From: Candidatus Omnitrophota bacterium
Lineage (GTDB): Bacteria; Omnitrophota; Omnitrophia; Omnitrophales; Aquincolibacteriaceae
Reading direction: 5' to 3'
Assembly: GCA_043732705.1 (NCBI GenBank)
Contig: JAYTHE010000032.1
Coordinates: 2,005-66,004 of the forward strand
Length of the DNA: 64,000 nucleotides
The notes under the pieces were generated by a model. That model was not told the origin of the DNA. It did not search any database and was given only the letters and a program-made list of their open reading frames with translations. The stretch's first letter is position 1, and each line of letters begins with the position of its first letter. Made by a program: the position numbers and the translations under genes. Shown piece after piece: positions 38,015-59,150 of the stretch.

Positions 38015-38710
38015 ATGCAAAAAATATCGATTATTATCCCTGCGTACAATGAAGCTCCGACTATTCGTCAGCTGGTTGAAAGAATTTTAGCCGTTGATTT
38101 TAAAATCGCTTACGAAATTATCATCGTGGATGATCACAGCGAAGACCGCACCCCCGAAATTGCCCGCGCCTTGGGCAGCGAATCGGCCGGCAAAGTTAAA
38201 ATTCTGCGCAATGAAGTCAATCAGGGAAAAGGATATTCGATCCAACGCGGCTTTACGCAGGCGACAGGCGACATTGTTATCGTTCAGGATGCGGACTTTG
38301 AATATAACCCGCAGGAAATTCCGAAACTGCTTCAACCTTTGCTGGACGGTCAAGCGCAAGTCGTTTACGGCAGCCGCTTTTTAAAGGGCGACCGTCCGGA
38401 TGGAATGGCGTTCCCAAACTATGTCGCGAATAAATTCCTGACTTGGCTTACCAATGCGCTTTATGGCTGCAAGTTGACAGATATGGAAACCTGTTACAAA
38501 CTTGTGAAGCGGGATATTCTCGAGAGTTTAAATTTAACCGCCCGCCGGTTTGATTTTGAACCCGAAATTAGTTCGAAACTGACGCTTAAAGGGATCGCCA
38601 TTATGGAGCTTCCGATTACTTATCATGGACGTACCGCCGCGCAAGGCAAAAAAATCAAGGCGCGTGATTTTTTTATGGCGATTGAAGTCCTTTTCAAAAA
38701 CCGCCGATGA
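38015..38710 (+). CDS. GT2 polyprenyl-phosphate sugar synthase (DPM1-like)
   Basis: ISIIIPAYNE...IIVDDHSEDRT...VQDADFEY. Confidence 0.8.
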   Translation: MQKISIIIPAYNEAPTIRQLVERILAVDFKIAYEIIIVDDHSEDRTPEIARALGSESAGKVKILRNEVNQGKGYSIQRGFTQATGDIVIVQDADFEYNPQEIPKLLQPLLDGQAQVVYGSRFLKGDRPDGMAFPNYVANKFLTWLTNALYGCKLTDMETCYKLVKRDILESLNLTARRFDFEPEISSKLTLKGIAIMELPITYHGRTAAQGKKIKARDFFMAIEVLFKNRR

Positions 38711-40548
38711 AGCGCGTTATCCGATTGTTAACTTTCGGAATCGCGACTTTTGTTTTAACCGCTTTTTCTGTTTCTTCCACTCAGGCTGAATCGCTTGCCA
38801 TGCGTGAAATTCGAGTTGCTGCCGCAGTGTCACCCGGGTTTCAATCTTTACCGGAATGGAAATCTGATTTTGAAAGGCGTTTGATCTACGCCTCACGAAT
38901 TTTTGAAAGTGAATTTAAGATTAAATTCAAATTGGTTCGCTACGTGAAATGGACGCCTTCCGAGGAAGCCGCGGAAATGACCTCTTTGCTTGAACAATTG
39001 CGCGGGGATATTAACCTGGCTGATGTGGATATTGTGATTGGTCTGACTCATTACAATGTGGCTCCCGACCACCCTGATATGAAGGATTTGCACACTCTGG
39101 GGCAAGCCCGGCCGTTTTCAGGGCATCTGGTGATTCGCTATCCCGCTAATAAGCTTTACAAGGTACAGGAAGAAACCGTGCTTGCGCATGAGCTGGGACA
39201 TGTGTTCGGCGCCGTACATACCGATGACCCCAACAGTATTATGTCGCCAGTGGTAGACCGCCAAATTCCCGTGCGATTTGATGCCGAAAACCGGCAGATT
39301 ATTCTCGAGACGCGGGCCATTAACGTGAATCGCGGCGCTGAATCCCTTCCAACCAATATGCTGCAACGATTATTGCGCTCTTATTTAAAAATGATCGGCA
39401 AAAACGGCTCCTCCGATTTTTATTATTCAATCGGACTTTTTTATTTACAGTTGGGTCAGCCCAATGACGCGATCAAGGCTTGGAAAAGAGCGGTGAGTGT
39501 TGACCCGGAAAATCCCGAGTGGCGCTATAACTTGGGCGCGCTTTATTTCAAATCAGGCGATTTTGCGCACGCGATTCCGGAGCTGAGCCAGGCCGTTTCG
39601 GGATTCCGGTTTGACGTGCAAAAACCAATGCAGGCATCGGCGTTGACCATTTTAGGCGAAGCTTATTTTGAGCAGGACAATATGTTCGCCGCGAATAATG
39701 CGTGGACTCGTGCGTTGGGTTTACAGCCGGGTGATCTCGAGCTTCAAGCGGGCTTGGCGGGAGTTAAATTTAAACAGGGCCAAATCAGTAATGCGATTGA
39801 TGATTTTCAGCGAATTTTAAAGAAGGATCCAAAAAATTTACGGTCTTTGATTTATTTAGGGAAAGCGCTGCATCAACAGCAGAAAATGCCGGAAGCGGTG
39901 CAGTATTTTGAACTCGCGCTCACCGAACTGAACCGCCAGCCGCGTACCCCCGGCCAAGTTCAGCAGTTGAGTACTGTTTACGGAGAACTTGGAAATATTT
40001 ATCTGACGCTTGATAATCAAAAACAAGCCTTTGAAAATTTTCAAGCAGCATGTGATTTAGCCCCTTCCGGCGAATGCCACAAGCAATTGGGTGTGACGAT
40101 GTTTAGTATGCGGCAATGGGGAGAAGCCTCGCGGGAATTTGCGCAGGCTTTGCAGTTTAATAAAGAGGATGCGGATGTTTATGGCATGATGGGAACAGCG
40201 CTCGCGCAGAATGATGACTTTCCCAATGCGGTCGGAGTTTTTAAAGAAGGTTTAAAATACGCGAAGGATCCAAAAATGCAGGCGCGCTTACACCGCAATA
40301 TCGGCAATTTATATTTATCGCAAAAGGGTTATGATCTTGCCGAGCCTGAATTTCAGCTCGCGTTGACGAAAGACTGGAGTGATGTCGACAGCCATTTTGG
40401 CCTAGCGATGGCTCAGCTTGGTAAAGACGAATCCGTTTCGGCGATTGATAGTTTGCGTGACGTTTTGCGTATTGACCCGAGCAATAAACGCGCTCAATCC
40501 ATGCTTGAATCGATTCAGGCCAGCTTAAACAGTCAGCAGCCCGGATAA
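38707..40548 (+). CDS. secreted metzincin-like zinc metalloprotease domain plus C-terminal TPR repeats
   Basis: Signal peptide; HELGHVFGAVH (HExxHxxGxxH) followed by a Met-turn-like SIMSP; more than eight TPR units. Confidence 0.55.
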   Translation: MKRVIRLLTFGIATFVLTAFSVSSTQAESLAMREIRVAAAVSPGFQSLPEWKSDFERRLIYASRIFESEFKIKFKLVRYVKWTPSEEAAEMTSLLEQLRGDINLADVDIVIGLTHYNVAPDHPDMKDLHTLGQARPFSGHLVIRYPANKLYKVQEETVLAHELGHVFGAVHTDDPNSIMSPVVDRQIPVRFDAENRQIILETRAINVNRGAESLPTNMLQRLLRSYLKMIGKNGSSDFYYSIGLFYLQLGQPNDAIKAWKRAVSVDPENPEWRYNLGALYFKSGDFAHAIPELSQAVSGFRFDVQKPMQASALTILGEAYFEQDNMFAANNAWTRALGLQPGDLELQAGLAGVKFKQGQISNAIDDFQRILKKDPKNLRSLIYLGKALHQQQKMPEAVQYFELALTELNRQPRTPGQVQQLSTVYGELGNIYLTLDNQKQAFENFQAACDLAPSGECHKQLGVTMFSMRQWGEASREFAQALQFNKEDADVYGMMGTALAQNDDFPNAVGVFKEGLKYAKDPKMQARLHRNIGNLYLSQKGYDLAEPEFQLALTKDWSDVDSHFGLAMAQLGKDESVSAIDSLRDVLRIDPSNKRAQSMLESIQASLNSQQPG

Positions 40549-40561
40549 AGGTGAGGACTTC

Positions 40562-41278
40562 ATGATTTGTCCCCAATGCCGGTCATCATTTTACTTTTTA
40601 GAATCGAGAACTTTGGCTGCTTCCGCGCGCTGTTTAAAATGTAGTCATCGCGGCGCACCCGTCAAATTTTCATACGATACCTATCATTCCGATCTTTACT
40701 CTTCAAAGCCTTACACCCGCAATCTCCGAACCGACCCGCAAATGAAATGGATCCTTTCGCGTCTTAATATTCAGCCGCGTGATGTGGTGATTGACTTAGG
40801 CTGCGGTGTGGGTGATTACACGCGTGAAGCGCGCAATTTAACTGAGCGGGCTGCGGGATATGACCGAGACGCGAATGCCGCAAAAAGAAAGTATCCCGGA
40901 GTTGCTTTTTTTGAACATGATTTGGATCAACCGATTCCCTTGCCGGACGCATCTGTGGATAAGTTGGTTTCAATTAATGTGATCGAACATTTGGTTGATT
41001 GGGATTTTTTTTTGCGAGAATGTCATCGCGTTTTGCGACCGGGGGGTGTGATTGCGCTTTCAACGGCTAATCGCGATTTTCTTCTGCACGCTTTCCATCA
41101 CGATGCCACGCACTATCACGAATGGACTTTAGATCAATTTGTAAAGATTGCGGAAGCCCATTTTTTGACAATTACGGCAAGAAAAGACTGTGCGATGTTT
41201 AATTACTATCCGATTAATTTAATTTTGAGCCATGTTTTGAAACCGGACCTGTCCTGGATTGGGAGAAAGAAGCATTAG
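40562..41278 (+). CDS. zinc-ribbon plus class I SAM-dependent methyltransferase
   Basis: CPQC...CLKC; VIDLGCGVGDYT; LRPGGVIALST. Confidence 0.65.
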   Translation: MICPQCRSSFYFLESRTLAASARCLKCSHRGAPVKFSYDTYHSDLYSSKPYTRNLRTDPQMKWILSRLNIQPRDVVIDLGCGVGDYTREARNLTERAAGYDRDANAAKRKYPGVAFFEHDLDQPIPLPDASVDKLVSINVIEHLVDWDFFLRECHRVLRPGGVIALSTANRDFLLHAFHHDATHYHEWTLDQFVKIAEAHFLTITARKDCAMFNYYPINLILSHVLKPDLSWIGRKKH

Positions 41279-44949: not shown

Positions 44950-45558
44950 ATGAATTTATGGGTGATTTTTCAAAAAGGCGGGCCGATTATGTGGCCGCTG
45001 CTGGTGACTTCGATTATTGCGACTTCGGTTGTGATTGAACGCGTCATTTTTATTATGCAGGAACGCAAAAGACGCAGCGCTTTTGTGGTTGATAAAATTT
45101 TGTCGGCGGTTGAAGAAGGCGACTTAGGCAAAGCAATTGATGTCGGACGCAATTCCGAAGATTTCGTAGCCAGAACATTGATTTATGGATTAGCGCATCG
45201 TGAAAGTTCTTTTTCAAATGCGTTGCTGCGTGCCGCGAATTTAGAGTTGAAACGTTTTAACCAGGGAATTGTCGTGCTTGATACGATTATTACGCTTGCG
45301 CCGCTACTTGGATTGCTTGGTACAGTGACCGGTATGATTCACGCGTTCAGTTTGCTTGGCGGAGCCGAACTTGGCGCGCCGATGGCGATTACGGGTGGCA
45401 TCGCGGAAGCTTTGATTGCCACAGGCTTCGGACTTGCGATCGCGATTATCTCTTTGATTCCGTTTAATTATTTAAATTCATTCGCGGAAATCGCGCGACA
45501 TGAAATAGAAGACGCTTCGTCGCATTTAGAACTCCTTTTAATGCAGACGCAGCCATGA
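44950..45558 (+). CDS. exbB: MotA/TolQ/ExbB proton-channel protein
   Basis: Three transmembrane segments; TIITLAPLLGLLGTVTGMIHAF. Confidence 0.8.
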   Translation: MNLWVIFQKGGPIMWPLLVTSIIATSVVIERVIFIMQERKRRSAFVVDKILSAVEEGDLGKAIDVGRNSEDFVARTLIYGLAHRESSFSNALLRAANLELKRFNQGIVVLDTIITLAPLLGLLGTVTGMIHAFSLLGGAELGAPMAITGGIAEALIATGFGLAIAIISLIPFNYLNSFAEIARHEIEDASSHLELLLMQTQP

Positions 45559-45616
45559 TTTGGCTTTTGGGCGTCGCTCAAATCGCGATGCCCGCAACAA
45601 TGAGAGAAAAGTTTTT

Positions 45617-46057
45617 ATGAGAATTCCGACTCATCAACGCAAACGCGCGCGGATTGAAATCATCCCGTTGATCGATATTATGTTTTTTTTGCTGGCGACC
45701 TTTGTCATGGTTTCGCTTTCGATGGTCAAGAATAACGGCATTGCCGTGAATTTACCCGTCGCGTCGACCGGCGCCGCCCAGGAACGTAAAATTTTGACGA
45801 CACTCACCGTTACTGAAGAAGGCTTTTTGTATATTGATAAAGAAAAGATTTCGATCGAGGCTTTGCCTGCGCGCCTTAAAGTACTGAAAGAAACTGATCC
45901 CGATATGAAAGTTTTTATCAACGGCGATGAAAAAGCTTCTTTCGGTGGAGTGATTAAAGTTTTGGATGAAGTTCGTAAATTAGGCATCACGAAAGTCGCG
46001 CTGCAGACAGCTTCTGCTTCTGCGGTTACACCGCAACCAGCGGGAACAAGAAAATGA
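45617..46057 (+). CDS. exbD: ExbD/TolR biopolymer transport protein
   Basis: IIPLIDIMFFLLATFVMVS; start at the internal ATG with an RBS. Confidence 0.75.
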   Translation: MRIPTHQRKRARIEIIPLIDIMFFLLATFVMVSLSMVKNNGIAVNLPVASTGAAQERKILTTLTVTEEGFLYIDKEKISIEALPARLKVLKETDPDMKVFINGDEKASFGGVIKVLDEVRKLGITKVALQTASASAVTPQPAGTRK

Positions 46058-46785
46058 ATATGACCGCTACGTTTTCAAATGAAATGCGCATGAAGCATAA
46101 AATTTCAATTTGGAATAATCTCGCGGATAAAAAAACACCGCGCTTGGCTAGTTTCATCGCGGCACTTTTGTTTCATGCTGTTTTTTTCTTCATTGGTGGA
46201 ATGATTTTGATTAAGGCCCCCCAATACGCTTTGGATAGGAATCAGGGCGGTGTGGATATTTATCTTGTGGCAGCGCCCGTGCCAACAATTTTTGCCTCTG
46301 CGCCGGAGGCGCAACCGGTGGATCGCATTACCCAAAAATCTGAAATGGATATTCCGGTTTCGAAACCCGTAACCGTGAATCTGCGGGAAGTTAAAAAATT
46401 GGTGAATACCATGAAAGAATCCGTGCATCGCGGCGACGGAAGTTCTGCTCTTTCCGGAGAAAATGCGACAACTGTTTCATCCTCCGGTAATGGTCAAACA
46501 AAAGAAAAACCGGGATATTTAAAAAATCCACCTCCGGCCTACCCTTATGAATCGATACAAAGGGGGCAGGAGGGGTTGGTGATGTTGTTAGTTTCGATTG
46601 ACCGTTTTGGACATCCGCTTAAAGTGGAACTGAAGCAAGGTTCGGGATTTTATTTACTTGATCGCTCCGCGATGAAAGCGGTTAAGAAGTGGGAATTCAG
46701 CCCTGCACGGATGGGCGCGCTGGCTGTAGATACGCAAATTACAATTCCGGTTCGTTTTCGCCTCGACGACGTTAAAAAGCGCTAA
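46054..46785 (+). CDS. tonB: TonB-family energy transducer
   Basis: N-terminal transmembrane segment; C-terminal TonB domain YPYESIQRGQEGLVMLLVSID...FSPAR. Confidence 0.7.
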   Translation: MNMTATFSNEMRMKHKISIWNNLADKKTPRLASFIAALLFHAVFFFIGGMILIKAPQYALDRNQGGVDIYLVAAPVPTIFASAPEAQPVDRITQKSEMDIPVSKPVTVNLREVKKLVNTMKESVHRGDGSSALSGENATTVSSSGNGQTKEKPGYLKNPPPAYPYESIQRGQEGLVMLLVSIDRFGHPLKVELKQGSGFYLLDRSAMKAVKKWEFSPARMGALAVDTQITIPVRFRLDDVKKR

Positions 46786-46790
46786 AAATT

Positions 46791-47105
46791 TTGAAATCAG
46801 AATCTGATATCAAACGTTTAAAAATTACGCTGCTAGTTGCGGGACTTATGCTGTGTGTTGCGGTTCTGCCTTCATTGCCCTATTACTTTTTTATTTTACT
46901 TCGCTGCGTGATTTGTGGAGCTGCGGTTTATGCTGCGGTGGCATTGCGAACCGAAGATGCGCCACTCTCGAATCATTTTATTCCGTTGGCGATTCTGGCA
47001 ACTTTATTCAACCCCATGATCCCGGTTCAATTGTCGTATTCGCTTTGGCTGGTGATTGATCTTGGCACAGCGGTTTATTTTTCGATTCTAGTTAGACAAT
47101 TATGA
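46791..47105 (+). CDS. small membrane protein
   Basis: 104 aa with three hydrophobic helices. Confidence 0.35.
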   Translation: MKSESDIKRLKITLLVAGLMLCVAVLPSLPYYFFILLRCVICGAAVYAAVALRTEDAPLSNHFIPLAILATLFNPMIPVQLSYSLWLVIDLGTAVYFSILVRQL

Positions 47106-47173: not shown

Positions 47174-47290
47174 GAAGGTAACAAAGCATGAAGATACTAT
47201 TGCGCCGAAGGCGCATAAATATAACTGGTGGGTCCACAGTAAAGTATCTTCACTGCGACGGAGTCGCATGAAGATACTTTACTGTGGTGA
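47174..47290 (+). promoter_or_regulatory. leader region with a 27-codon Arg-rich upstream ORF (47188..47271) whose stop overlaps the main start (ATGA), and a ~25-bp hairpin (47234-47259 / 47263-47287) burying the main AUG
   Basis: Leader ORF translates as MKILLRRRRINITGGSTVKYLHCDGVA; RBS GAAGGT; the left hairpin arm can alternatively pair with the leader start region (shared TGAAGATACT). Confidence 0.5.
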
Positions 47291-47993
47291 CAGTCACGAA
47301 GGCGGTCCGGCAAATTACCTGCTGGGCATTTTGAATTATAATAACGCAGATGTGACGCACATTCCTCCAGGAGTTCAGCTTGAGCCGCAAATTTTCAACC
47401 AGCGTTTTGATGCGATTATTTTGAGTGATTATGGCCGCGATTGCGTTTCCGCTAAAGCCGAAGAAAAAATTATTTATCAGGTTTTGTCGGGAACAGGCCT
47501 TCTGATGGTGGGCGGCTGGGGTTCTTTTTCAGGGCCTTTCGGAAATTGGAAGGGTTCCGAAATTGAAAAGCTTTTGCCGGTGGATTGTCTCAAAAAAGAC
47601 GATCGGCATAATTTAGGTTCAGGGCTTTATGTGTTTAAAAAGAAAAACAACCCTATTCTTAAGGGCGTGAACTTAAAGCAATCACCCGTGATTATCGGTT
47701 TTAACGAAGTGAAGCCAAAAGAAAATGCCGACGTGATTTTAACGCTTAAAGCTTTTCAACCGTCCAAAAAGAGTTTTTCAAAACAAGAATATCCACTTTT
47801 AGTGTTAAACAAAAATCCCGAAATTCGCACTGCTGCTTTTACGACCGATTTCGCACCGCACTGGTGCGGCGGACTTGTAGATTGGGGTAATAAGCGCTGC
47901 AAACTTTTCGTATCAAAAGATATTCAAATTGAAATCGGTGATCAGTACGTTCAGTTTGTTTCACAGATTTTGAAATGGGCCGCACGCGCCTAA
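47268..47993 (+). CDS. hypothetical protein, possibly class I glutamine-amidotransferase-like fold
   Basis: 241 aa; no firm motif; first gene of the photolyase operon. Confidence 0.35.
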   Translation: MKILYCGDSHEGGPANYLLGILNYNNADVTHIPPGVQLEPQIFNQRFDAIILSDYGRDCVSAKAEEKIIYQVLSGTGLLMVGGWGSFSGPFGNWKGSEIEKLLPVDCLKKDDRHNLGSGLYVFKKKNNPILKGVNLKQSPVIIGFNEVKPKENADVILTLKAFQPSKKSFSKQEYPLLVLNKNPEIRTAAFTTDFAPHWCGGLVDWGNKRCKLFVSKDIQIEIGDQYVQFVSQILKWAARA

Positions 47994-49435
47994 TGTCTTT
48001 GCCCGCGGCAATTGTCTGGCTGCGCCGCGATCTTCGCCTTGATGACAATCCCGCCCTCATCGAGGCTTTAAAACTATGTGATGTTATTCCTGTCTATATT
48101 CATGACCCTGAGTCAGAAGGTGCTTGGCAACCAGGTGCTGCGGGACAGTGGTGGCTGCATCAATCTCTTGAAAAGTTTTCCCAAGACTTAGCAGCTAAAG
48201 GCTCACAGCTCATTTTTAGGAAAGGGGATTCGCTCTCTGAGTTAAAAAAAATAATTCGAGAGACGAATGCGAAAGGTGTCTTTTGGAACCGCCGTTACGA
48301 GTCTGAAATTATTGAACGGGATAAAAAAATTAAAGAGGCCCTTAAAAAATCAGGCATGGATGTGCAAAGTTTTAATGCCAATCTCCTGAATGAGCCGTGG
48401 ACAGTTCAAACCGGCGGCGGCACACCGTTTAAAGTTTTTACGCCGTTTTGGAAAAAATGTTTAAATTCACCGGAACCAGTTCTGCCTTTAGCGGCGCCGA
48501 AACAAATTCCTGCTCCTGCTGAATGGCCCAAGTCTTGTAAGCTTTCCGATCTCCAATTAATGCCCGCGATTAAATGGTATGCCGGCATGAAAGAAGATTG
48601 GCAGCCGGGAGAAGCGGGCGCGCATGCTGAACTAAAAAATTTTCTCGATGAAAATGGGATACGGTATTTAGACGGCCGCGATACGCCATCGATTCGTGCC
48701 ACATCGCGAATGTCGCCTTATTTGCATTTTGGTGAAATCAGCCCGCGCCGGATTTGGCATGCGGTTCAAAAAAAATCTGCTCAAAGAAAAGAGTCCGGTT
48801 GGATACGTCAAGCTGAAGGTTTTATCCGTCAAATTTATTGGCGCGAATTTGCTTACCATTTACTTTACCATTTTCCTCAGACAACCGATCATCCTTTACG
48901 AAAACACTTTGAAAGGTTTGAATGGAAAAAAGACGCAAAGCTGCTGAAAGCCTGGCAAAAGGGAAACACCGGTTACCCGATCGTGGACGCAGGGATGCGC
49001 GAACTATGGCATACGGGCTGGATGCACAATCGCGTACGCATGATCACGGCTTCCTTTTTGGTGAAAGACTTGCTGATTCATTGGCTGGAAGGAGCGCGTT
49101 GGTTTTGGGATACTCTTGTCGATGCGGACCTTGCGAATAACACTTTGGGGTGGCAATGGGTTGCGGGGTGCGGTGCCGATGCCGCACCCTATTTCCGGAT
49201 TTTTAATCCGTTTACGCAGGGTGAAAAATTTGACGGAGAAGGCCTTTATGTCCGCCGCTGGTGTCCCGAACTTGCCCAGCTTCCCAATAAGTGGATTCAC
49301 CGTCCATGGGAAGCGCCGCCAGAAATTCTAAGTGCGGCCGGGGTGGATCTGGGGAAAACCTACCCAAAACCGCTTGTAAACCATGCGGATGCCCGCAAAA
49401 AAGCCCTGCTTTTATATGACCGCATCAGGGCTTAA
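47975..49435 (+). CDS. phrB: deoxyribodipyrimidine photolyase / cryptochrome family
   Basis: AIVWLRRDLRLDDNPAL; C-terminal FAD-binding region WMHNRVRM...GWQWVAG...PYFRIFNP. Confidence 0.85.
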   Translation: MGRTRLMSLPAAIVWLRRDLRLDDNPALIEALKLCDVIPVYIHDPESEGAWQPGAAGQWWLHQSLEKFSQDLAAKGSQLIFRKGDSLSELKKIIRETNAKGVFWNRRYESEIIERDKKIKEALKKSGMDVQSFNANLLNEPWTVQTGGGTPFKVFTPFWKKCLNSPEPVLPLAAPKQIPAPAEWPKSCKLSDLQLMPAIKWYAGMKEDWQPGEAGAHAELKNFLDENGIRYLDGRDTPSIRATSRMSPYLHFGEISPRRIWHAVQKKSAQRKESGWIRQAEGFIRQIYWREFAYHLLYHFPQTTDHPLRKHFERFEWKKDAKLLKAWQKGNTGYPIVDAGMRELWHTGWMHNRVRMITASFLVKDLLIHWLEGARWFWDTLVDADLANNTLGWQWVAGCGADAAPYFRIFNPFTQGEKFDGEGLYVRRWCPELAQLPNKWIHRPWEAPPEILSAAGVDLGKTYPKPLVNHADARKKALLLYDRIRA

Positions 49436-49680: not shown

Positions 49681-51138
49681 TTGGGCTTATCTGTCGGAGG
49701 TTTCGTGTTTTTTTCGTTTTCAAATTTAGATTTTAAAAAGAAGATTATTTTATGCTCCCTCATGTCGGCTCTTTTTTCGCCGATTATTTTTTCTATGCCC
49801 TCCGTTGAAGCCGCACAGGATGACCCGGGTTTGCGTATTCCGGAGTCGCAGGAAATTGCGCCCGACCAGTTTTTGGCGAGCGACGCGAGTAAATACTTTC
49901 AGAACGGAGATTTTGACAAGGCGATGATCGCCCTCAATCAGCTCGAAAAAAGTTTTCCCAATGACGAGTTAATTCAACGTTATCGTGCGATGACGCTTGA
50001 CCGTCTCGGCAAGTCCACTGAGGCGATAGAAATTTTCAACACTCTTCTTGCTAAAAACCCTGAACATGTTCCGACGCGTTATTTTCTTGGTCAGGCTTAT
50101 GCTCGCAGTGGGCGTTATGACGACGCGGCACGTGAGTGGAAGCAAGTCGCGAAAGATGGTGAGGGAACACCCTACGCTTTTTGGGCACAAACAGCGCTTG
50201 AACAAACCGGCAAGCCGGGAGTTAAATCCGAGCCTGCTGGAAAACTTCAGCGTTGGTACATCCAGGCCCGTTACGGTTATGAATTTGATTCCAATGTTAT
50301 TTTGCGTCCCGATGACCGCTCCCTGTCGGATGTCAAAGATCCTAATGCAGGCCGTCACAATCTCGACTTAGCTATTCGTTATCGCGCAGTTTCGCGTCGC
50401 GATACCGCGTTGGATGTCACATATGCGGCACGCCAGAGTTTGCACGATGATAATTTTAATGAATTCAATTACCATTCCGAAGAGGTGGGGCTCAATTTTC
50501 GTCAACGCACGAAGATTGGCGATCAAGACGTTGTGCTGGGATTACGTTATGAATATTTATTGGGCTTTCTCGGAGAAAACCTTTATTCTCAGCGCAATCG
50601 CTGGCATATTTCTGCCGATACAAAATTTACCGAACATACCCAGACGATTTTTTATGATCGTATGACGGTTTCCAATTATGGTCCGGATGGGTTTAATCCT
50701 CCGCAAACTTCGCGCGATGGATTTGAAAATGACACCGGGGTGACTCAGTTTTTCTACGGTCGAAATTTTCAACAGCATCTCTTTTTGCGTGGTGAGTTTA
50801 ATACAGCAGCAGACCGTGGTTCTAATTTTGACTCGGTTGGGTATACCACGCGCGTGGGTTTTCATGCACCTATTCCGCACACAAAAAAGTTTTCATTTGA
50901 TATTTCTTCAGGGCTTGAAAATCATTTCTATCCGCACTTTACTTCCACATCCAGTCTTGACAGGAGCCGGCGCCGTGATCTGGAGTGGGACATATATACA
51001 GCGATAACCTACGACATTACCAAAGACTTTGCAGTGCGCAGCTTTTACCGTTATGTAAACAGCAATAATCAAAATAACTTGTATGACTATCAACGCCAAA
51101 TCGGCGGAATTCAGTTTATTTACAGCCGAGCCGCATAA
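49681..51138 (+). CDS. outer-membrane protein: N-terminal TPR region plus C-terminal beta-barrel-like domain (Slam/DUF560-like or BcsC/PgaA-like)
   Basis: Signal peptide; TPR helices; then about 330 aa of alternating amphipathic strands rich in Y/F/N/D/G/R; start uncertain (TTG 49681, GTG 49705 or ATG 49762). Confidence 0.45.
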   Translation: MGLSVGGFVFFSFSNLDFKKKIILCSLMSALFSPIIFSMPSVEAAQDDPGLRIPESQEIAPDQFLASDASKYFQNGDFDKAMIALNQLEKSFPNDELIQRYRAMTLDRLGKSTEAIEIFNTLLAKNPEHVPTRYFLGQAYARSGRYDDAAREWKQVAKDGEGTPYAFWAQTALEQTGKPGVKSEPAGKLQRWYIQARYGYEFDSNVILRPDDRSLSDVKDPNAGRHNLDLAIRYRAVSRRDTALDVTYAARQSLHDDNFNEFNYHSEEVGLNFRQRTKIGDQDVVLGLRYEYLLGFLGENLYSQRNRWHISADTKFTEHTQTIFYDRMTVSNYGPDGFNPPQTSRDGFENDTGVTQFFYGRNFQQHLFLRGEFNTAADRGSNFDSVGYTTRVGFHAPIPHTKKFSFDISSGLENHFYPHFTSTSSLDRSRRRDLEWDIYTAITYDITKDFAVRSFYRYVNSNNQNNLYDYQRQIGGIQFIYSRAA

Positions 51139-51157
51139 AGCGGCCAAGGAGAAAATC

Positions 51158-52219
51158 ATGAGAAATAAATTTTTGACGTTTGTTGCGGCAGTGATATTGT
51201 TGCCGGCTGCTGTTTTTGCGCAAACCGCACGGGATGCCGACATTGATTCGAAATTAAATGCTGGAACACTTGCCGGCATTGCTCCGCCAACGGGTTCGCA
51301 GTCTGCGCCCGCAACGGCCACAAACAATCAGAAATTTTTAGATCCGTATTTGCCGGCTGCGATTCAGACGGACAAAGTGATTTTGGGTCAGACTGATGGT
51401 AAAGCTCGCGCGTATGAAGTTCAGGGCAATGTGACCGTCGTTAAAAAAGGCAGCCCTGATGAAGTTAAGTTACGAAAAGGCGACATTCTTGAAGCGGGCG
51501 ATAAGATCTATACCGATGCGGGCTCAGCGGTATCAATTACATTTGATGAAAATTATAAAAATGCCGTTCATGTCACAGAAAATTCCAAAGCCGTTTTTGA
51601 AGGAATTGAACCGACGAATATTCGCATTATTAATGGTTCTATTTTTAGCGCTGTTGATGGATTGCCTCAGGGTAGTACATGGAAGGTGACTACGCCAGCA
51701 GCTGTCGCGGCCGTACGGGGAACGCTGTATCTTGTTAATTTTCAAGCGTCAAGCGGCCAGTTTTTTGCCGCAACGGTAAATGTGCCGGATGACGGAAAAG
51801 CCAGTGCGATTGATATTCAAGAAGTCAAAGGCGGCGGTTCAGCCAATGTTGCCGAAGGAAAGGAAATTACGCTCAAGCAGGGCCAGTCTGCAAGCAATTC
51901 GCTCGTGAAAGATTTAGATACAACTGTCTTAACTGAAGTTTTAAATTTTTTTGAAAAATTAATAAAGCTGCGAAATGATGAATCTAATAGCGGTGCACCT
52001 CCGACTGGCGGAGAATTCTTTGAACCGAATACGCTTGATCCGGCTGGCCCGGGAAATGTGGGCGGTGGTAACGATAAGTTAGACGTCAATGATCTCGGAA
52101 CGATTAAAAAGGATGCGGCACCGGAACCAGTAATTACTGAAGAAGGTTCTAATCAATCTCCTGGTGATAAGCCTGGAGATGAGTTTCCAGGCAATGGCTG
52201 CGGAGAAGACTGTAGTTAA
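51158..52219 (+). CDS. secreted FecR-domain protein, paralog 1
   Basis: Signal peptide; FecR-like core KGDILEAGDKIYTDAGSAVSITF...GSIFSAV...AAVRGTLYLV; G/P/E-rich tail ending GNGCGEDCS. Confidence 0.6.
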   Translation: MRNKFLTFVAAVILLPAAVFAQTARDADIDSKLNAGTLAGIAPPTGSQSAPATATNNQKFLDPYLPAAIQTDKVILGQTDGKARAYEVQGNVTVVKKGSPDEVKLRKGDILEAGDKIYTDAGSAVSITFDENYKNAVHVTENSKAVFEGIEPTNIRIINGSIFSAVDGLPQGSTWKVTTPAAVAAVRGTLYLVNFQASSGQFFAATVNVPDDGKASAIDIQEVKGGGSANVAEGKEITLKQGQSASNSLVKDLDTTVLTEVLNFFEKLIKLRNDESNSGAPPTGGEFFEPNTLDPAGPGNVGGGNDKLDVNDLGTIKKDAAPEPVITEEGSNQSPGDKPGDEFPGNGCGEDCS

Positions 52220-52376
52220 AAATTAAGTATTGATATGAAAAAAATCGGCACATTTTTACCGCCGCGTTTTATTTTTTCTTCAGATTGCAGCTTTCGCACG
52301 GAATTACGTACGGGACGCAGACTTTCATCTAAGTGTGTCATCGCGGCGAATAATTAAAAGGTAAGAAAACTAAAAA

Positions 52377-52928
52377 TTAGATCAGATTGCGCCGGGGCTG
52401 GAAATCGGGGTTGTAGAAAATTCCGTCGATCCAGCCCCGGTCGTTTTTACGCTCGGTAAAAGCGGCCCAAATCCATTCGGAGTGAATCTTCGAAAGCACC
52501 CCTTCGATTTTATCCGCATCGTATTTATAAAGTTTTCCGTCGTTAAATACGCGGTATTTTCCGTCTTGTTTAAAAACAGTGACTGTATGCGCGAATTGAT
52601 TTTTTCCGTAAACGCTGACGACTTGGCTTTCAAAGCCCAGCTCTTTAAGTGCCGCATCCGCAAATAAAGCAAAATCTTCGCAGTCGCCTTTTTTGCGGTT
52701 GAGCATTTCTTCCGGGCTTTGCCAGTAATCTATTTTTCCAAAATTCTCCTGATCTTCTACAAATTTAAAATTTTTTCGCATGAATTTTGATAGTTCTTCG
52801 GGCGAATGAACGGGCGCGAGATTAGGATGCAGTAAAAGAAGTGGTGCGGTGGTTTGCATTTGAGCAAACCCAGCCGGGCTCAATAGAAATGTCCATACCA
52901 GAATGAGCGCTAACGATTTTCGGATCAT
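52377..52928 (-). CDS. secreted transglutaminase-like cysteine peptidase superfamily protein
   Basis: Signal peptide; GDCEDFAL (catalytic Cys) ... FAHTV (His). Confidence 0.55.
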   Translation of the reverse strand: MIRKSLALILVWTFLLSPAGFAQMQTTAPLLLLHPNLAPVHSPEELSKFMRKNFKFVEDQENFGKIDYWQSPEEMLNRKKGDCEDFALFADAALKELGFESQVVSVYGKNQFAHTVTVFKQDGKYRVFNDGKLYKYDADKIEGVLSKIHSEWIWAAFTERKNDRGWIDGIFYNPDFQPRRNLI

Positions 52929-53255
52929 TTGTTCCTGTCCGGCAAACCGCAGCGTCGAGTCTTTAAAAGAGGATGAAACCGTCTTTTAGCTCAGTTGGTA
53001 ACCCGACTATGCTTTCATTTTTTTACTCTGGGCTGCGCCCAACCGTATAGTGGTTGGATTCACCCAGAACAGAAATGAAATCGCACCCGTGGCTTTGCGT
53101 CCTACTCTTACGAGCAGTTTGCCTTTTTCAATGTCTATTAGAAGGATGCTTGTGAGAGCTGTAAAATACAAGAGCTAGACAGTAAATAATTGTATGCTAG
53201 ACTATCAACATGATCATTTATGCTATTAATCGATATTCATTGAAGAGGTTTTAAT

Positions 53256-54215
53256 ATGAAGTTAACCACATTGAAAATTGTCCTATTAGGTCTGCTTATT
53301 TGTTTTTATATGACGTCCGCATATGCGACCAACTTACGCGATGCGGCGATTGACGCGCTTGTCTTTTCTCCTAAGCCGGATGGTAGTGAGAAAGATGGAA
53401 TGGCAAAAGTTTATGAGCTTCAGGGGAAAGCGGTGATTACGCCAAAGGGCAGTCCCGAGGAAAGAAATTTAAAAGTGGGCGATGAAATTAATAAGGGGGA
53501 TTCGGTCTTTACCGAAAAGGGCGCAAAGATTTCCATTAGCTTTGATAATCAAAAAAAGAATGCCATTCAAATTCCAGAAGATAGTCGCGCGATATTTACA
53601 AGCATTGAGCCCACGGATATTAAACTTGAGAATGGTTCAATTTTTAGCGTGGTGAATGGCTTGGCGCAGGGCAGCACTTGGAAAGTAACGACACCCTCCG
53701 CAGTTGCTGCTGTGCGTGGAACGGTTTTTCTTGTGCGTTATGAAGCTGCAAATGGAAAAATGTATGCTGCAACGGTGAATGTTCCCGGTGACGGAAAAAC
53801 TTCTGCGATTGAAATTCAGTCATTGAATGGTGGAGCGACAACTGAAATTTCAGAAGGAAAAGAAATTTCAATGAAAGCAGGCGAAGCTCCGAGCAGCGAA
53901 ATGGTTCAGGATTTAAGTCCTGAAGCTGTGTCTGAAGTTCAAAATTTCTTTGAACAGGTGAGTTCGGAAAGTGAAGCGTTAGAAAAATCGGATGATAATG
54001 AAAGTAAGTCAGAAGCAGAATCTGACAATAGTGGTGAAAACCCGCAGGATAAATCCTTAGAGGATACAAATAATTTTGATAATCCAGCTGATGCCGGAGG
54101 CTCGGACATGGAGCCGCCTCCTATAAATCAGGACGACACGCTTAAAGAGCTCGAAGAACCCAAGGCACCGGAAGAAGAGGAATGTAGGCCCGACGGATAT
54201 GGTGGGTGTTTGTAA
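53256..54215 (+). CDS. secreted FecR-domain protein, paralog 2
   Basis: Same core as paralog 1 (GDEINKGDSVFTEKGAKISISF...AAVRGTVFLV); acidic Ser/Glu-rich tail ending ECRPDGYGGCL. Confidence 0.6.
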   Translation: MKLTTLKIVLLGLLICFYMTSAYATNLRDAAIDALVFSPKPDGSEKDGMAKVYELQGKAVITPKGSPEERNLKVGDEINKGDSVFTEKGAKISISFDNQKKNAIQIPEDSRAIFTSIEPTDIKLENGSIFSVVNGLAQGSTWKVTTPSAVAAVRGTVFLVRYEAANGKMYAATVNVPGDGKTSAIEIQSLNGGATTEISEGKEISMKAGEAPSSEMVQDLSPEAVSEVQNFFEQVSSESEALEKSDDNESKSEAESDNSGENPQDKSLEDTNNFDNPADAGGSDMEPPPINQDDTLKELEEPKAPEEEECRPDGYGGCL

Positions 54216-54243
54216 TGTTAATCATTTAGAAAAAGGTAATCTC

Positions 54244-55470
54244 ATGAAAAAGTGTTGTTTTTTTATTTTAACGTTGTTTTTTTGGTGTATTGCAACTATT
54301 TCGTCTGCGGACACTAACCGTAACGCGGCAATTCGTGATGAAGCGGTTGATGCACAGGTCTTTACATCGGTTGGGGATTCAAGCACAAGTGATGGCAAAG
54401 CGATTGTTTATCAGCTCGAGGGTAAAGCGGTCATTACACCCAAAGGTAGTCCGATCGAAAGACATTTAAAGGTCGGCGATCTGATTCAAATCGGAGATTC
54501 GGTTTTTACAGAAAAAGGCGCTAGTCTTTCGATTAGTTTTGATACGCGCAAACAGAATGCCGTGCGTATTCCGGCTGAAACTAAGGCAACTTTCACAAGC
54601 ATTGAGCCGACAAACATTAAACTCGATGATGGAACTATCTTCAGCGTGGTGAATGGACTTGCAAAAGGTAGCACTTGGAAAGTAACCACACCCACGGCTG
54701 TTGCGGCTGTCCGTGGAACAGTTTTTGAAACTACTTATCACGCCGACACTAAAGAGTTTTTTGCCGCAACTCTCGAAGTTTCGGATGACGGAAAAAATTC
54801 AGCAATCGAGGTTGAATCACTTACAGGTGAAGATATGGCTAAGGTTGTTGAAGGTAAAGAAATTTCATTTAAAGAAGGCGAGATCCCGAGCCAACAAATG
54901 GTGCAAGATTTCAGTGCTGAAAAAATGGCAGAAGTGCAGCAGTTTCATCAGGAAATCTCCGCCGAGCGCGATAAAGAATCGGATGACAAATCAAAAGGGC
55001 CAGGAGGTCCGAATGGTCCGGGCGGACCGAATGGCGGAAGTGGACCCGGCAGTACAAACGGAACCGCGGCAAATGCGGCTTCCAATAATACAAATCCCAT
55101 GGCTGCATCGAATCTGATGAATACGGTCGGAAGCAGCGGGGCCAACGCATTGGGCGTGGGCGGCTTAGCCGGTTTGATTGGTACGGAAAGAACCGTCAGT
55201 TTTACTGGCGGAGCTGAAAGTGCCGTTGATGTATCGAACGTGGAGGGGTTAAGCGCCAAGAATGAAGCCTTTAAGGAGTTAATTCAAACCCCCACTCCCG
55301 AACGAATTGATCGGCTTGAAACAACAGGAACGGCCGGCGGGGGAAACTTTAAAACGGTTTATGACCAGACTGTGGGTAATCCCGCGAACGTAAATATTTT
55401 TCCGGATTCGGCGGGCGGCGGCGGATGTGCGAGCGGAACATCCAGGTCTGCTTCAGGTGTATGCGTCTAG
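54244..55470 (+). CDS. secreted FecR-domain protein, paralog 3
   Basis: Core near-identical to paralog 2; tail GPGGPNGPGGPNGGSGPG... ending GGGCASGTSRSASGVCV. Confidence 0.6.
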   Translation: MKKCCFFILTLFFWCIATISSADTNRNAAIRDEAVDAQVFTSVGDSSTSDGKAIVYQLEGKAVITPKGSPIERHLKVGDLIQIGDSVFTEKGASLSISFDTRKQNAVRIPAETKATFTSIEPTNIKLDDGTIFSVVNGLAKGSTWKVTTPTAVAAVRGTVFETTYHADTKEFFAATLEVSDDGKNSAIEVESLTGEDMAKVVEGKEISFKEGEIPSQQMVQDFSAEKMAEVQQFHQEISAERDKESDDKSKGPGGPNGPGGPNGGSGPGSTNGTAANAASNNTNPMAASNLMNTVGSSGANALGVGGLAGLIGTERTVSFTGGAESAVDVSNVEGLSAKNEAFKELIQTPTPERIDRLETTGTAGGGNFKTVYDQTVGNPANVNIFPDSAGGGGCASGTSRSASGVCV

Positions 55471-55495
55471 AAGCAGCCGTAAAAAATTAATTTTA

Positions 55496-55535
55496 GGGCC
55501 GCGGATTATTTTATATCCGCGGCCCTTTTCTGTTT
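55496..55535 (+). terminator. rho-independent terminator
   Basis: GGGCCGCGGAT-loop-ATCCGCGGCCC then TTTTCTGTTTT. Confidence 0.55.
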
Positions 55536-55590: not shown

Positions 55591-56319
55591 ATGAAAAAAG
55601 CAATTGTGATTGGAACCAGTACGGGAATCGGGAAAGCGCTTGTTTTTGAGCTCCACAAACAAGGTTATAGCGTCGGATTAACCGGGCGAAATCTGGATGC
55701 GATGCAGGCTATTCAAACCGAGCTTGGCGAGCATATGTCGATTGAAGTCTTGGATGTTCGCAATCCCGAAACCGCGATGGAAGCGTTAAAGCGCTTGATT
55801 ACAAAGATGGGTGGGCTGGATCTGATTGTTTTTAATGCCGGCGTACTTATTGCTAATCCTGATTTTGAATGGAAAGCTGAGCGAGAGACGACGGCCGTGA
55901 ATGTGCTTGGTTTCCAGGCCATGGCCAATGTTGCCTGCCATTTTTTTGAGAAGCAGGGTTATGGACAAATAGTCGGAATTTCTTCGATTGCCTCGCATCG
56001 CGGCACGGCACGCTCGCCGAGTTACAATGCTTCAAAAGCATTTGTTTCGATTTACATGGAAGGTTTGCGGCAGCGTTATTTCGGGACAAAAATTAAAATC
56101 ATTGATATCCGTCCGGGCTTAATTGATACGCCCATGACGGAAAAAATCCGACATAAATTTTGGAGTGTGCCGGCGGAGCAATGCGCGCGTGATATTCTCA
56201 AAGCTGTGAAGCAAAATAGAAAAACGGCCTATGTGCCCGCGCGCTGGTGGGGAATCGCGCAAATTTTTAAAATAATCCCTGAATTTATTTACCATAATCT
56301 TTACCGCCGCTATGCGTAA
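55591..56319 (+). CDS. short-chain dehydrogenase/reductase (SDR)
   Basis: IVIGTSTGIGKA; catalytic YNASKAF. Confidence 0.8.
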   Translation: MKKAIVIGTSTGIGKALVFELHKQGYSVGLTGRNLDAMQAIQTELGEHMSIEVLDVRNPETAMEALKRLITKMGGLDLIVFNAGVLIANPDFEWKAERETTAVNVLGFQAMANVACHFFEKQGYGQIVGISSIASHRGTARSPSYNASKAFVSIYMEGLRQRYFGTKIKIIDIRPGLIDTPMTEKIRHKFWSVPAEQCARDILKAVKQNRKTAYVPARWWGIAQIFKIIPEFIYHNLYRRYA

Positions 56320-56841
56320 GTTGACCCATCTCGAACTACAAGCGCGTCAAGATGCCATCCGATCTGATGGTGAAAAAATTCCCCTGATGTTGATATTGAA
56401 TAATATCCGCTCGCTTTATAATGTTGGTTCTATTTTTAGAACAGCGGACGGCATCGGAGCGCAAAAAATCTACTTATGCGGAATCACGCCGATTCCGCCG
56501 GATAATCAAATCACAAAGACCGCGCTTGGGGCGGAAAAAACGGTGCCGTGGAAGTTTTTCGAGTGCGCTGTCGATGCCGTGCGCCAGGCTAAATCAGAAG
56601 GGTATAAAATTATTTTGTTGGAGCAAACGCAAAGCAGCGTAGTTCATCAGAACTTTATTCCTGCGGGGCCGGTTTGCCTGGTGCTTGGAAATGAAAACTC
56701 CGGAGTGAGCGACGAGCTTTTGGCGCTTTCGGATGGTTCGATTGAAATCGAGATGGCAGGTCTCAAGAATTCATTGAATGTCAGCGTTGCTTTCGGAGTC
56801 GTCGGCTACGATTTGCGTAATAAGCTAAAATCTTCGCTGAA

Positions 56842-56845
<4 letters not shown>
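56312..56845 (+). CDS. SpoU/TrmH-family RNA 2'-O-methyltransferase
   Basis: [11 protein letters not shown]...[11 protein letters not shown]. Confidence 0.75.

Positions 56846-59150
<2,305 letters not shown>

Follow-up and report, generated by a model that had tools for sequence, protein, structure and literature searches.

A cluster of five genes for exported proteins

In this work, we describe a cluster of five genes, termed A to E, in a 64,000-nt stretch of DNA from Candidatus Omnitrophota bacterium (GCA_043732705.1, contig JAYTHE010000032.1, positions 2,005 to 66,004 of the forward strand). We refer to this whole stretch as the window and give all coordinates within it. The cluster spans positions 49681-55470, where five open reading frames (ORFs) encode an outer-membrane protein (A), three paralogous secreted proteins with a FecR domain (B, D and E) and a small cysteine protease related to LapG (C). 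An initial annotation, made from the sequence, had proposed that this was a transporter with its cargo family or a surface-display system, and our computational analysis supports it. On balance, we think it probable that the cluster encodes a Sec-dependent display or secretion module of the outer membrane, specific to the Omnitrophota, in which a Slam-like barrel protein would export the FecR-domain proteins and a LapG-like protease would release them. The genes and their features are the following (aa, amino acids).

49681..51138, + strand: A, outer-membrane protein, 485-aa ORF (477 aa in its database version, P0001)
~aa 19-44 of A, + strand: signal peptide of A, KKKIILCSLMSALFSPIIFSMPSVEA, recognised from the sequence
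49870..50175, + strand: TPR domain of A, on the presumed periplasmic side; TPR_19, TPR_2, TPR_16 and others above cutoff at aa 65-165, helices at 53-167 in the model
50239..51135, + strand: predicted 14-strand barrel domain of A (AlphaFold2 model), a remote relative of DUF560/SlipAM
51158..52219, + strand (ORF from 51083): B, candidate cargo paralog, 353 aa from MRNKF (Pfam FecR and AlphaFold2 model)
51227..51361, + strand: N-terminal motif block of B, with ARDADIDSKL (the RDxxID helix), GIAPPTGS and FLDPYLPAA (DP, then PAA)
51395..51961, + strand: FecR-type core of B shared by the paralogs, aa 80-268 (PF04773; fold match to 5ix9)
51719..51724, + strand: Gly188-Thr189 of B (equivalents in D at 53718-53723 and in E at 54715-54720)
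51920..52054, + strand: helix of B TTVLTEVLNFFEKLIKLRNDES (255-277 in the model), then APPTGGEFFEPNTLDPAGPG, the candidate recognition and cleavage module of the protease
52199..52216, + strand: C-terminal Cys loop of B, CGEDCS (equivalents in D at 54183-54212, CRPDGYGGCL, and in E at 55426-55467, CASGTSRSASGVCV)
52377..52928, - strand: C, secreted transglutaminase-like cysteine protease of the LapG family (BTLCP), 183 aa (matches in Pfam and among solved structures)
53256..54215, + strand: D, candidate cargo paralog, 319 aa, with signal peptide, LRDAAIDALV, FecR core, acidic tail and C-x7-C
54244..55470, + strand (ORF from 54199): E, candidate cargo paralog, 408 aa from MKKCC, with signal peptide, IRDEAVDAQV, FecR core, tail and C-x11-C
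55495..55526, + strand: strong terminator-like hairpin that closes the cluster (12-bp stem with 9 GC pairs, then a T run)

Read by eye, the products of all five genes start with a Sec-type leader (basic, then hydrophobic, then an AxA-like site), and none of them has a lipobox cysteine. The gaps between genes are short, about 20 nt from A to B and about 29 nt from D to E. Gene C had been described in the initial annotation as a transglutaminase-like gene inserted between the paralogs; it is indeed found there, but on the opposite strand and convergent with B, and it turns out to be a conserved member of the locus. PADLOC gave no defence-system match for any of the proteins A to E.

The barrel protein and its remote relationship to Slam

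In protein A, Pfam finds TPR repeats only (aa 65-165), and the C-terminal 300 aa have no match. The AlphaFold2 model, built from a 31-sequence alignment with a mean predicted local distance difference test score (pLDDT) of 85.8, consists of the leader, three TPR repeats (aa 53-167) and 14 beta-strands (aa 184-476), so that the TPR region and C-terminal barrel that had been proposed for this 485-aa protein are both recovered, the number of strands being that of Slam/DUF560 and of OmpG. Foldseek searches of the PDB rank as best folds two 14-strand monomeric barrels, OmpG (target TM-score 0.64-0.69) and CymA, and also list BcsC and PelBC, with TM-scores of 0.29-0.40 and a high root-mean-square deviation (rmsd). 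No PDB entry was matched in sequence, either by the barrel alone or by a 22-member alignment of barrels. There are about 105 full-length homologs of A (36-74% identity, 440-500 aa), annotated as nothing more than 'TPR repeat protein', and the organisms named for them are all Candidatus Omnitrophica/Omnitrophota.

The relationship of this barrel to known families becomes visible at a distance. Within the barrel family itself, only scattered members reach the Pfam families BBP2_2, DUF2860 and SlipAM, the latter in 1 of 22 sequences (E 0.024) and in none of the members of alignment A2. An exhaustive phmmer search with the barrel region alone, against 1.84 billion cluster representatives and with E up to 1e-3, found 133 clusters. 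Among the 90 distant barrel clusters examined, SlipAM is the commonest barrel family (13 clusters, best E 6.6e-8), and TPR_Slam matches 29 of them. In particular, the window barrel is connected to P0223 (phmmer E 1.4e-8), the central member of an intermediate family (alignment A8), and hhalign joins the family of the window protein (A3) to this intermediate family with a probability of 100% and an E of 2.1e-56 over 283 of 299 columns. SlipAM is matched by 9 of the 28 members of A8; for P0223, the barrel scores 23.7 bits against a gathering score of 22 and covers positions 55-277 of the 288 of the profile. Since the intermediate family thus bridges to SlipAM, the window barrel is, by these profile comparisons, a remote relative of the Slam/type 11 secretion system (T11SS) outer-membrane proteins, and not a direct member of DUF560.

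The Slam/T11SS proteins are defined by an N-terminal TPR domain of ~140 aa, a 14-strand DUF560 barrel and adjacent cargo genes (PMC8406197), and they have been reported as proteobacterial (PMC8406197; PMC12282271). The window protein shares with Slam1, NilB and HrpB the architecture of one outer-membrane protein with a periplasmic TPR domain (~100-140 aa) and a 14-strand barrel, to which are added the remote homology described above, the adjacency of the cargo genes and the delivery of the cargo to the periplasm by Sec, soluble cargo processed by signal peptidase I being possible in these systems too. The differences are also clear: PF04575 is not directly matched, the host is an Omnitrophota and not a Proteobacterium, the presumed cargo has an N-terminal RDxxID motif, FecR domains or low-complexity sequence in place of the C-terminal 8-strand barrel of TbpBBD type and the lipid anchor, and the locus carries a LapG-like protease, which is undescribed for T11SS.

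The initial annotation had likened the barrel either to Slam/DUF560 or to PgaA/BcsC-type exporters, and only the first of these comparisons stands, in the remote form given above. The second would make A a polysaccharide-export porin of the PgaA, BcsC or PelB type, with neighbouring secreted proteins that are unrelated to it or belong to the matrix. A TPR domain followed by a barrel is indeed also the layout of the synthase-dependent exopolysaccharide exporters, BcsC and PelBC are among the Foldseek hits, some family members match BBP2_2 weakly, and two distant relatives of the protease C (in loci L038 and L041) are encoded beside sugar-transferase genes. However, those porins have 16-18 strands (PMC8406197), a long TPR region and a synthase operon, compared with 14 strands and only three TPR repeats in the model of A; the low TM-scores and high rmsd of BcsC and PelB make for a poor superposition; the BBP2_2 matches are limited to roughly the last 50 residues, and the NCBIfam BcsC match to A (E 0.026) is confined to the TPR region. 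Moreover, no polysaccharide synthase or glycosyltransferase is conserved beside the barrel in the 32 loci described below, the GT2 gene of the window (38015-38710) being 11 kb away. We therefore regard a polysaccharide-export function as very improbable.

A constant barrel with a changing exported partner

The genomic context of the barrel was examined by scanning one genome per GTDB species, which yielded 32 loci that were analysed by six-frame ORF calling and hidden Markov model (HMM) searches. Nearly all of these loci are labelled Omnitrophota, and a few Planctomycetia or Deltaproteobacteria; Candidatus Makaraimicrobium, found among them, likewise belongs to the Omnitrophota. In 27 of the 30 informative loci, a gene for a secreted protein with a signal peptide lies directly 3' of the barrel gene and on the same strand. 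The family of this protein differs according to the clade of the barrel, as follows (identities are to the window barrel).

Clade 1 (48-74% identity; the window, L001-L007, L013): 1-4 or more FecR-core paralogs; LapG-like gene present, on the opposite strand wherever found
Clade 2a (31-43%; L008, L009, L011, L021, L022): Gly/Ser/Thr/Asn-rich low-complexity proteins without FecR, and a 1400-aa RHS-repeat protein in L022; LapG-like gene present
Clade 2b (36-39%; L014, L016, L018, L019): low-complexity proteins starting ...R[DE]xA[IV]D..GGMEEGSR; LapG-like gene absent
Clade 3 (~20%; L023-L029, L032): proteins of 700-2850 aa with tandem FecR domains directly after the signal peptide and a common C-terminal domain; LapG-like gene absent

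The pairing of the barrel with a FecR-domain protein, on which the idea of a dedicated transporter partly hung, is thus found in two clades whose barrels are 48-74% and ~20% identical to that of the window, and the barrel has not fallen into an unrelated porin family. Because the family of the partner changes while its position stays fixed, the arrangement fits a dedicated transporter with Sec-exported cargo, and not a fixed accessory subunit. A changing partner at a fixed position is what is known from the transporter-cargo pairs of the T11SS and of two-partner secretion (PMC8406197).

One could object that the adjacency has no functional meaning and that the paralogs and the protease underwent a lineage-specific expansion beside an outer-membrane protein gene. 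Most of the loci come from one phylum, so that shared ancestry inflates the co-occurrence counts, and in the closest relatives the whole block is kept between the same photolyase and SDR genes. Yet the adjacency still holds at ~20% barrel identity, where the flanking genes are entirely different (they are unrelated between clades), the gaps between the genes are short, and the presence of the protease co-varies with a specific motif of the cargo. This explanation, too, seems to us very improbable.

Between the photolyase and SDR genes, the window has 3 FecR paralogs, L002 has 4, L003 at least 4 and L004 at least 2. The length and composition of their tails also vary among the relatives L001-L004, L001 having a 761-aa version with an Asn/Asp/Arg/Gly-rich tail. 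These variations among close relatives point to a rapid diversification of the cargo.

Several partners in the other clades deserve mention in their own right. In L022 (2015-6217, +), the gene directly downstream of a clade 2 barrel encodes the 1400-aa RHS-repeat protein, with a signal peptide, and the LapG-like gene is convergent with it; this protein may be a toxin-type cargo of the same system. The giants of clade 3 (930-2850 aa in L024, L025, L026 and L032, e.g., L032 11253-19805) are secreted, directly follow the barrel and have two N-terminal FecR domains. They share a C-terminal domain (...W[SA]D[NG][QE]W...G[TS]Y...G[AN]GAG...), Pfam finds nothing in them beyond FecR, and no LapG-like gene lies within 10 kb. 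In L008 (14371-16487, +), two tandem paralogous secreted proteins of 348 and 354 aa with coiled-coil-like C-termini are found just past the LapG-like gene. Finally, the cargo in L011 (7813-8454) and in L021 (6225-7295) consists almost entirely of short repeats, GGNAGGN(S)GGNAGG... and GTGTGxGN..., respectively, an extreme case of low complexity among the secreted proteins.

The FecR-domain proteins as candidate cargo

The three paralogs had been recognised from a shared FecR-like core, and this is borne out by Pfam: with a gathering score of 24 for FecR (PF04773), B reaches 29.6, D 37.2 and E 30.8 bits. Over the 188-aa core, B and D are 53% identical, B and E 47%, and D and E 65%. The tails that follow (85, 84 and 170 aa in B, D and E) are of differing low-complexity sequence rich in G/P/N/E/S/D, that of E being G/S/N/T/A-rich, and each ends with Cys-x(3-11)-Cys. 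From its N-terminus, B is composed of the signal peptide, the N-terminal motif block, the FecR core, a helix, the PPTG-LDP module described in the next section, the tail and the C-x3-C loop. Its AlphaFold2 model has an overall pLDDT of 60, which rises above 90 at aa 80-130, in the FecR domain, and the tail is predicted to be disordered.

The best PDB fold for the FecR core is 5ix9, the anchoring domain of an RTX adhesin (target TM-score 0.72, rmsd 2.0 A, 65 columns, 23% identity, E 0.02). Annotated as 'cell surface anchoring domain', this structure represents the retention domain at the N-terminus of the RTX adhesin of Marinomonas, and it served as the template for the retention module of LapA (10.1101/198937). 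The NCBIfam retention-module model NF033682 gives sub-threshold scores on B, D and E (25-27 bits against a cutoff of 50). The order of elements in B, that is, a beta domain resembling 5ix9, a helix, a DP-containing motif of small residues and a Gly-rich unstructured segment, mirrors the N-terminus of LapA and DvhA.

The core also carries a candidate site of self-cleavage. R187-G188-T189 of B is invariant in 28 homologs, and Gly188-Thr189 aligns with G181-T182 of E. coli FecR, at the same position (~74) of the PF04773 profile. FecR and FoxR cleave themselves at this Gly|Thr through an N-O acyl shift, after which the fragments remain associated (PMC12036975). Judging from this alignment, self-cleavage of B, D and E at Gly|Thr is plausible.

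In the N-terminal motif block, kept in 16 or more orthologs, conservation of D26 and D30 of B is 90% or higher. Cargo proteins of clades 1 and 2 have the RDxx[IV]D helix right behind the signal peptide, and it is kept in clades 1, 2a and 2b, as well as in D and E, both of which are devoid of PPTG. Because it is retained even where PPTG is lacking, we infer that this helix is the better candidate for the signal read by the TPR domain of the barrel protein.

The cysteine-paired tails noted in the initial annotation are real in B, D and E but are not a trait of the whole family. One or two Cys-x(n)-Cys loops form the C-terminus of B, D and E and of each of the four paralogs in L002, whereas homologs without the pair end in Tyr- and acid-rich sequence. 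Elsewhere in the protein, 22 of 26 homologs have no Cys, so that the loop is position-specific. It is thus a genuine feature, which recalls the cysteine hook of CdrA, and it does not define the family. A word-indexed homolog search with B returned 27 hits from a candidate list saturated by low-complexity words; the cargo family is probably larger than this.

A LapG-like protease and its candidate cleavage module

Protein C passes the Pfam cutoffs of DUF553, Transglut_core and Peptidase_C93/BTLCP (30.1 bits against 27 for Peptidase_C93). When compared with all PDB sequences by phmmer, its top two matches are both LapG: 4u65_E (E 1.6e-9), which is the LapG chain of the LapG-LapD complex, and 4fgo from Legionella (E 2.6e-4). 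C and LapG share the signature DYWxxPxE...GDCED[FY]A, which 13 orthologs of C keep as DYWQSPEE..GDCED[FY]A. The candidate catalytic residues are Cys83 (GDCEDF), His114 (AHTV) and Asn130/Asp131; the 13 orthologs conserve Cys83, His114 and an Asn/Asp ~15 residues on, and orthologs of C adjoin the cargo genes in 13 loci. By sequence, C is a LapG homolog and a conserved member of the system, and not an incidental insertion.

LapG-type proteases free adhesins from the cell surface by cutting a periplasmic segment between the retention element and the part that is threaded through the outer-membrane conduit (PMC13090378; 10.1101/198937). This holds for adhesins of type 1 secretion systems (T1SS), LapA and DvhA, and for the two-partner-secretion adhesin CdrA, which is held in CdrB by a C-terminal cysteine hook (PMC7616799; PMC4694147). 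Their substrates have a targeting helix, a DP motif, a small-residue scissile motif [T/A/P]AAG and Gly-rich flanks (PMC13090378; 10.1101/198937).

The cargo of clades 1 and 2a carries a module composed of an amphipathic helix, a Gly-rich stretch, [L/A]PPTG[G/S] and, 8-29 residues further, LDPxLDT or LDPAGPG. In the B-type cargo of clade 1, the module is found twice, once in the N-terminal block (ARDADIDSKL...GIAPPTGS...FLDPYLPAA) and once after the FecR core (helix 255-277 and the segment that follows it). In clade 2a, the part of the helix is taken by the RDxxVDxx[LF] peptide directly after the signal peptide, and the RHS protein of L022 contains the whole module (SRDLQVDQFLG, LPPTG, LDPQLDT) at aa 1215-1265 of 1400. 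The position of the module, which can be N-terminal, internal or near the C-terminus, fits the behaviour of a portable cleavable linker.

With a strict pattern, 9 of the 560 ORFs of at least 150 aa carry both motifs, and 8 of these 9 are the gene directly downstream of the barrel. Module and protease occur together in 12 loci, the module alone in one (L005), the protease alone in none and neither in 11 (Fisher's exact p = 4.8e-6, a value that is indicative only, since the loci are phylogenetically clustered). This co-variation supports the PPTG-LDP module as a candidate recognition and cleavage site for C. In its layout the module resembles the LapG substrates, and a DPYLPAA is found in the N-terminal block of B-type cargo only.

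Two other interpretations of these sequences were rejected. A di-alanine LapG site in the FecR core (TTPAAVAAVRGT) was discarded since its two alanines are not kept in D and E (PSAV and PTAV) and the sequence lies in a beta-strand. Neither is 'LPPTG' a sortase motif, as no hydrophobic segment or charged tail comes after it and it can be N-terminal.

A scan of metagenomes that started from the protease neither reinforced the association with the barrel nor undid it: most close relatives are on contigs too short to reach the barrel gene, and L033 and L039 have a convergent cargo-like ORF.

A model for display and release

The domain identities, the conserved gene order, the remote homology of the barrel and the way in which the module co-varies with the protease are shown by sequence analysis, and from these we infer the translocation, the topology, the scissile bonds and a biological role in adhesion or in contact with prey or host. 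In the model that we favour, A would be a dedicated translocator and anchor for B, D and E, encoded directly downstream. The cargo would be exported by Sec, as suggested by the signal peptides visible in the sequences, and captured in the periplasm by the TPR domain of A, the likely handle being the RDxx[I/V]D helix after the signal peptide. By analogy with T11SS, type 5 secretion systems and Lap, the unstructured Gly/Pro/acidic segment would be threaded through the 14-strand barrel until a folded stopper tethers the chain. A first candidate for this stopper is the FecR-type beta domain, similar in its N-terminal part to the periplasmic plug, or retention domain, of the LapA/MpIBP adhesins, and a second is the putative C-terminal disulfide loop, comparable to the CdrA cysteine hook; the two could also act together, with either topology. 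The protease C would recognise the helix-[L/A]PPTG-LDPxLDT module in the periplasm and cut there, leading to the release or maturation of the cargo, and the invariant Gly-Thr of the FecR core would probably self-cleave too, as in FecR and FoxR. If there is any regulation, it would differ from that of Lap, because no LapD-like receptor of cyclic di-GMP (c-di-GMP) is found nearby.

The comparison with the Lap system (LapA, LapG, LapD, LapEBC; DvhA/DvhG) is supported by the presence of a periplasmic cysteine protease of the BTLCP/LapG family beside its presumed substrates, in addition to the order of elements in these substrates. The two systems differ, however, in that the window substrates have Sec signal peptides and no RTX region (no RTX Pfam match was found in the cargo) or T1SS signal, that their outer-membrane partner is a TPR-barrel and not the TolC-like LapE, with no ABC transporter or membrane fusion gene, that the motif is [L/A]PPTG...LDPxLDT and not DPxxxLxx[T/A/P]AAG, and that the exported parts are short tails rather than giant repeat adhesins, although giants exist in clade 3. 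The analogy with CdrA/CdrB of Pseudomonas aeruginosa would lie in a Sec-dependent cargo, a dedicated outer-membrane barrel, a C-terminal Cys pair and a release of the LapG type. There, in contrast, the barrel is a 16-strand Omp85/TpsB protein with POTRA domains and the cargo has a two-partner secretion (TPS) domain; no POTRA, ShlB or TPS Pfam domain was found among the five window proteins, and the Cys pair is present in only ~1/3 of the homologs.

Several observations weigh against this model. On the side of the barrel, TPR_Slam stays below threshold on A (24.8 bits against 35.2), and the barrel alone matches no Pfam family even at E up to 10, so that the DUF560 profile (PF04575) fails on the window protein itself. 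The NCBIfam LapG model gives 41 bits on C for a cutoff of 320, below the equivalog level, the canonical [T/A/P]AAG site is not in the module, the module-bearing locus L005 has no protease within 10 kb, and the protease relatives of L038 and L041 that adjoin sugar-transferase genes have no barrel within 7 kb. A search by regular expression only, over the window and the 32 loci with 10-kb flanks, found no LapD-like GGDEF/EAL ORF of at least 200 aa. As for the cargo, the match to 5ix9 extends over 65 columns only (E 0.02) and derives from a model of overall pLDDT 60, at least two Cys in the last 30 aa are found in only 8 of 26 homologs, and Pfam detects no C-terminal 8-strand barrel as in the characterised T11SS cargo, the C-terminal 85-170 aa being of low complexity and predicted to be disordered. 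Furthermore, a folded FecR core of 190 aa would need to stay unfolded to cross a 14-strand barrel. Finally, the surface exposure, the cleavage and the barrel dependence in this model are predictions made by computation.

The main alternative to display is a purely periplasmic system, in which A would be an outer-membrane protein of porin-like or structural function and the FecR proteins would bind to its TPR domain, in the manner of peripheral membrane proteins of the LipL45 type or of FecR-type sensors, with the protease and the Gly|Thr cleavage serving their maturation or turnover, possibly in a signalling cascade. The FecR domain is classically periplasmic and self-cleaving (PMC12036975), NCBIfam gives weak matches to the Leptospira proteins LipL45, Lsa33 and Lsa19, the barrel finds its closest solved folds in two porins, OmpG and CymA, TPR domains bind peptides, and the tails of the paralogs are short (85-170 aa). 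The fold of the partner is not conserved, however, since clade 2 barrels are followed by low-complexity or RHS proteins without FecR, unlike what is expected of a fixed subunit or sensor, and RHS proteins and giants are of a type that is commonly exported, as effectors or adhesins. With the FecR/FoxR anti-sigma regulators, the window proteins have in common the PF04773 domain and its Gly-Thr at the position of the N-O acyl shift. E. coli FecR is composed in Pfam of DUF4880, FecR and FecR_C, whereas B, D and E show FecR only: they have no anti-sigma N-terminal domain (DUF4880), transmembrane helix or FecR_C, and are soluble, secreted proteins with disordered tails. Neither an ECF (extracytoplasmic function) sigma factor gene nor a TonB-dependent transducer gene adjoins the cluster, and ExbBD-TonB, 3 kb upstream, keeps its synteny in the closest relative only. 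We hold this periplasmic scheme to be unlikely, and display by a Slam-like module remains the reading that we retain.

Neighbouring genes

An ExbB-like, ExbD-like and TonB (TonB_C in Pfam) trio is found at 44950-46785 (+), 3 kb upstream of the cluster. A functional tie of this trio to the cluster was rejected, as the synteny is limited to the nearest relative, L002. It is followed by a DUF6804 small membrane protein (46791-47105), a GATase1-like gene (47268-47993) and a photolyase-like ORF (47975-49435). Further upstream, 38015-41278 (+) encodes the GT2 glycosyltransferase, then a 613-aa protein and then a methyltransferase. In the 613-aa protein, many TPR repeats are joined to a reprolysin/M12-like metallopeptidase domain (aa 61-198), which is an unusual fusion; this protein matched the barrel HMM weakly, through its TPR region only. 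Downstream of the cluster, 55591-59150 (+) carries genes that we judged from their sequences to encode an SDR-family oxidoreductase, a SpoU/TrmH-like methyltransferase, an acylphosphatase-like ORF and the NAD-dependent DNA ligase LigA; these are housekeeping genes unrelated to the system.

Implications for the Omnitrophota and for the families involved

Elements of three known systems (T11SS, Lap/CdrAB and FecR self-cleavage) are brought together in this locus, in a way that we did not find described in the literature on Omnitrophota giant genes, on complete genomes or on FecR and retention modules. A more far-reaching interpretation, which we put forward only tentatively and consider possible rather than probable, is that the Omnitrophota possess an unrecognised class of Sec-dependent secretion and display system of the outer membrane, made up of a Slam-type barrel, a LapG-type protease acting on a new [L/A]PPTG-LDPxLDT linker and self-cleaving FecR-type retention domains. 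With it, these ultra-small, probably predatory or epibiotic cells would deploy and shed surface proteins, from short disordered 'hairs' to RHS toxins and adhesin-like giants of 2850 aa.

If the model is true, Slam/T11SS-type translocators would reach beyond the Proteobacteria, into a phylum of the PVC group, with a cargo signal unlike the C-terminal beta-barrel. LapG-family proteases, known so far for releasing T1SS and two-partner-secretion adhesins under the control of c-di-GMP, would also have been recruited to an outer-membrane conduit of a third type, where they would act without LapD and on another recognition motif. As a module for retention or self-cleavage, the FecR domain would acquire a function outside sigma-factor signalling, which could explain the many orphan secreted 'FecR domain-containing' proteins, such as the LipL45 family of Leptospira. 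The PPTG-LDP module and its small protease could also serve as a portable cleavable tag for surface display.

For the Omnitrophota themselves, a host-dependent or predatory lifestyle has been proposed (PMC10066038; 10.1101/2023.11.21.568195); the system is not mentioned in these works, nor in the preprint on their complete genomes (10.64898/2026.06.07.730766). The RHS and giant cargo of the sister clades suggests adhesion or contact-dependent attack, which would fit this proposed lifestyle. The system, if it works as we propose, would give these uncultured bacteria a testable route by which to place adhesins or toxins on their surface, and would thus bear on the way of life that has been attributed to them.

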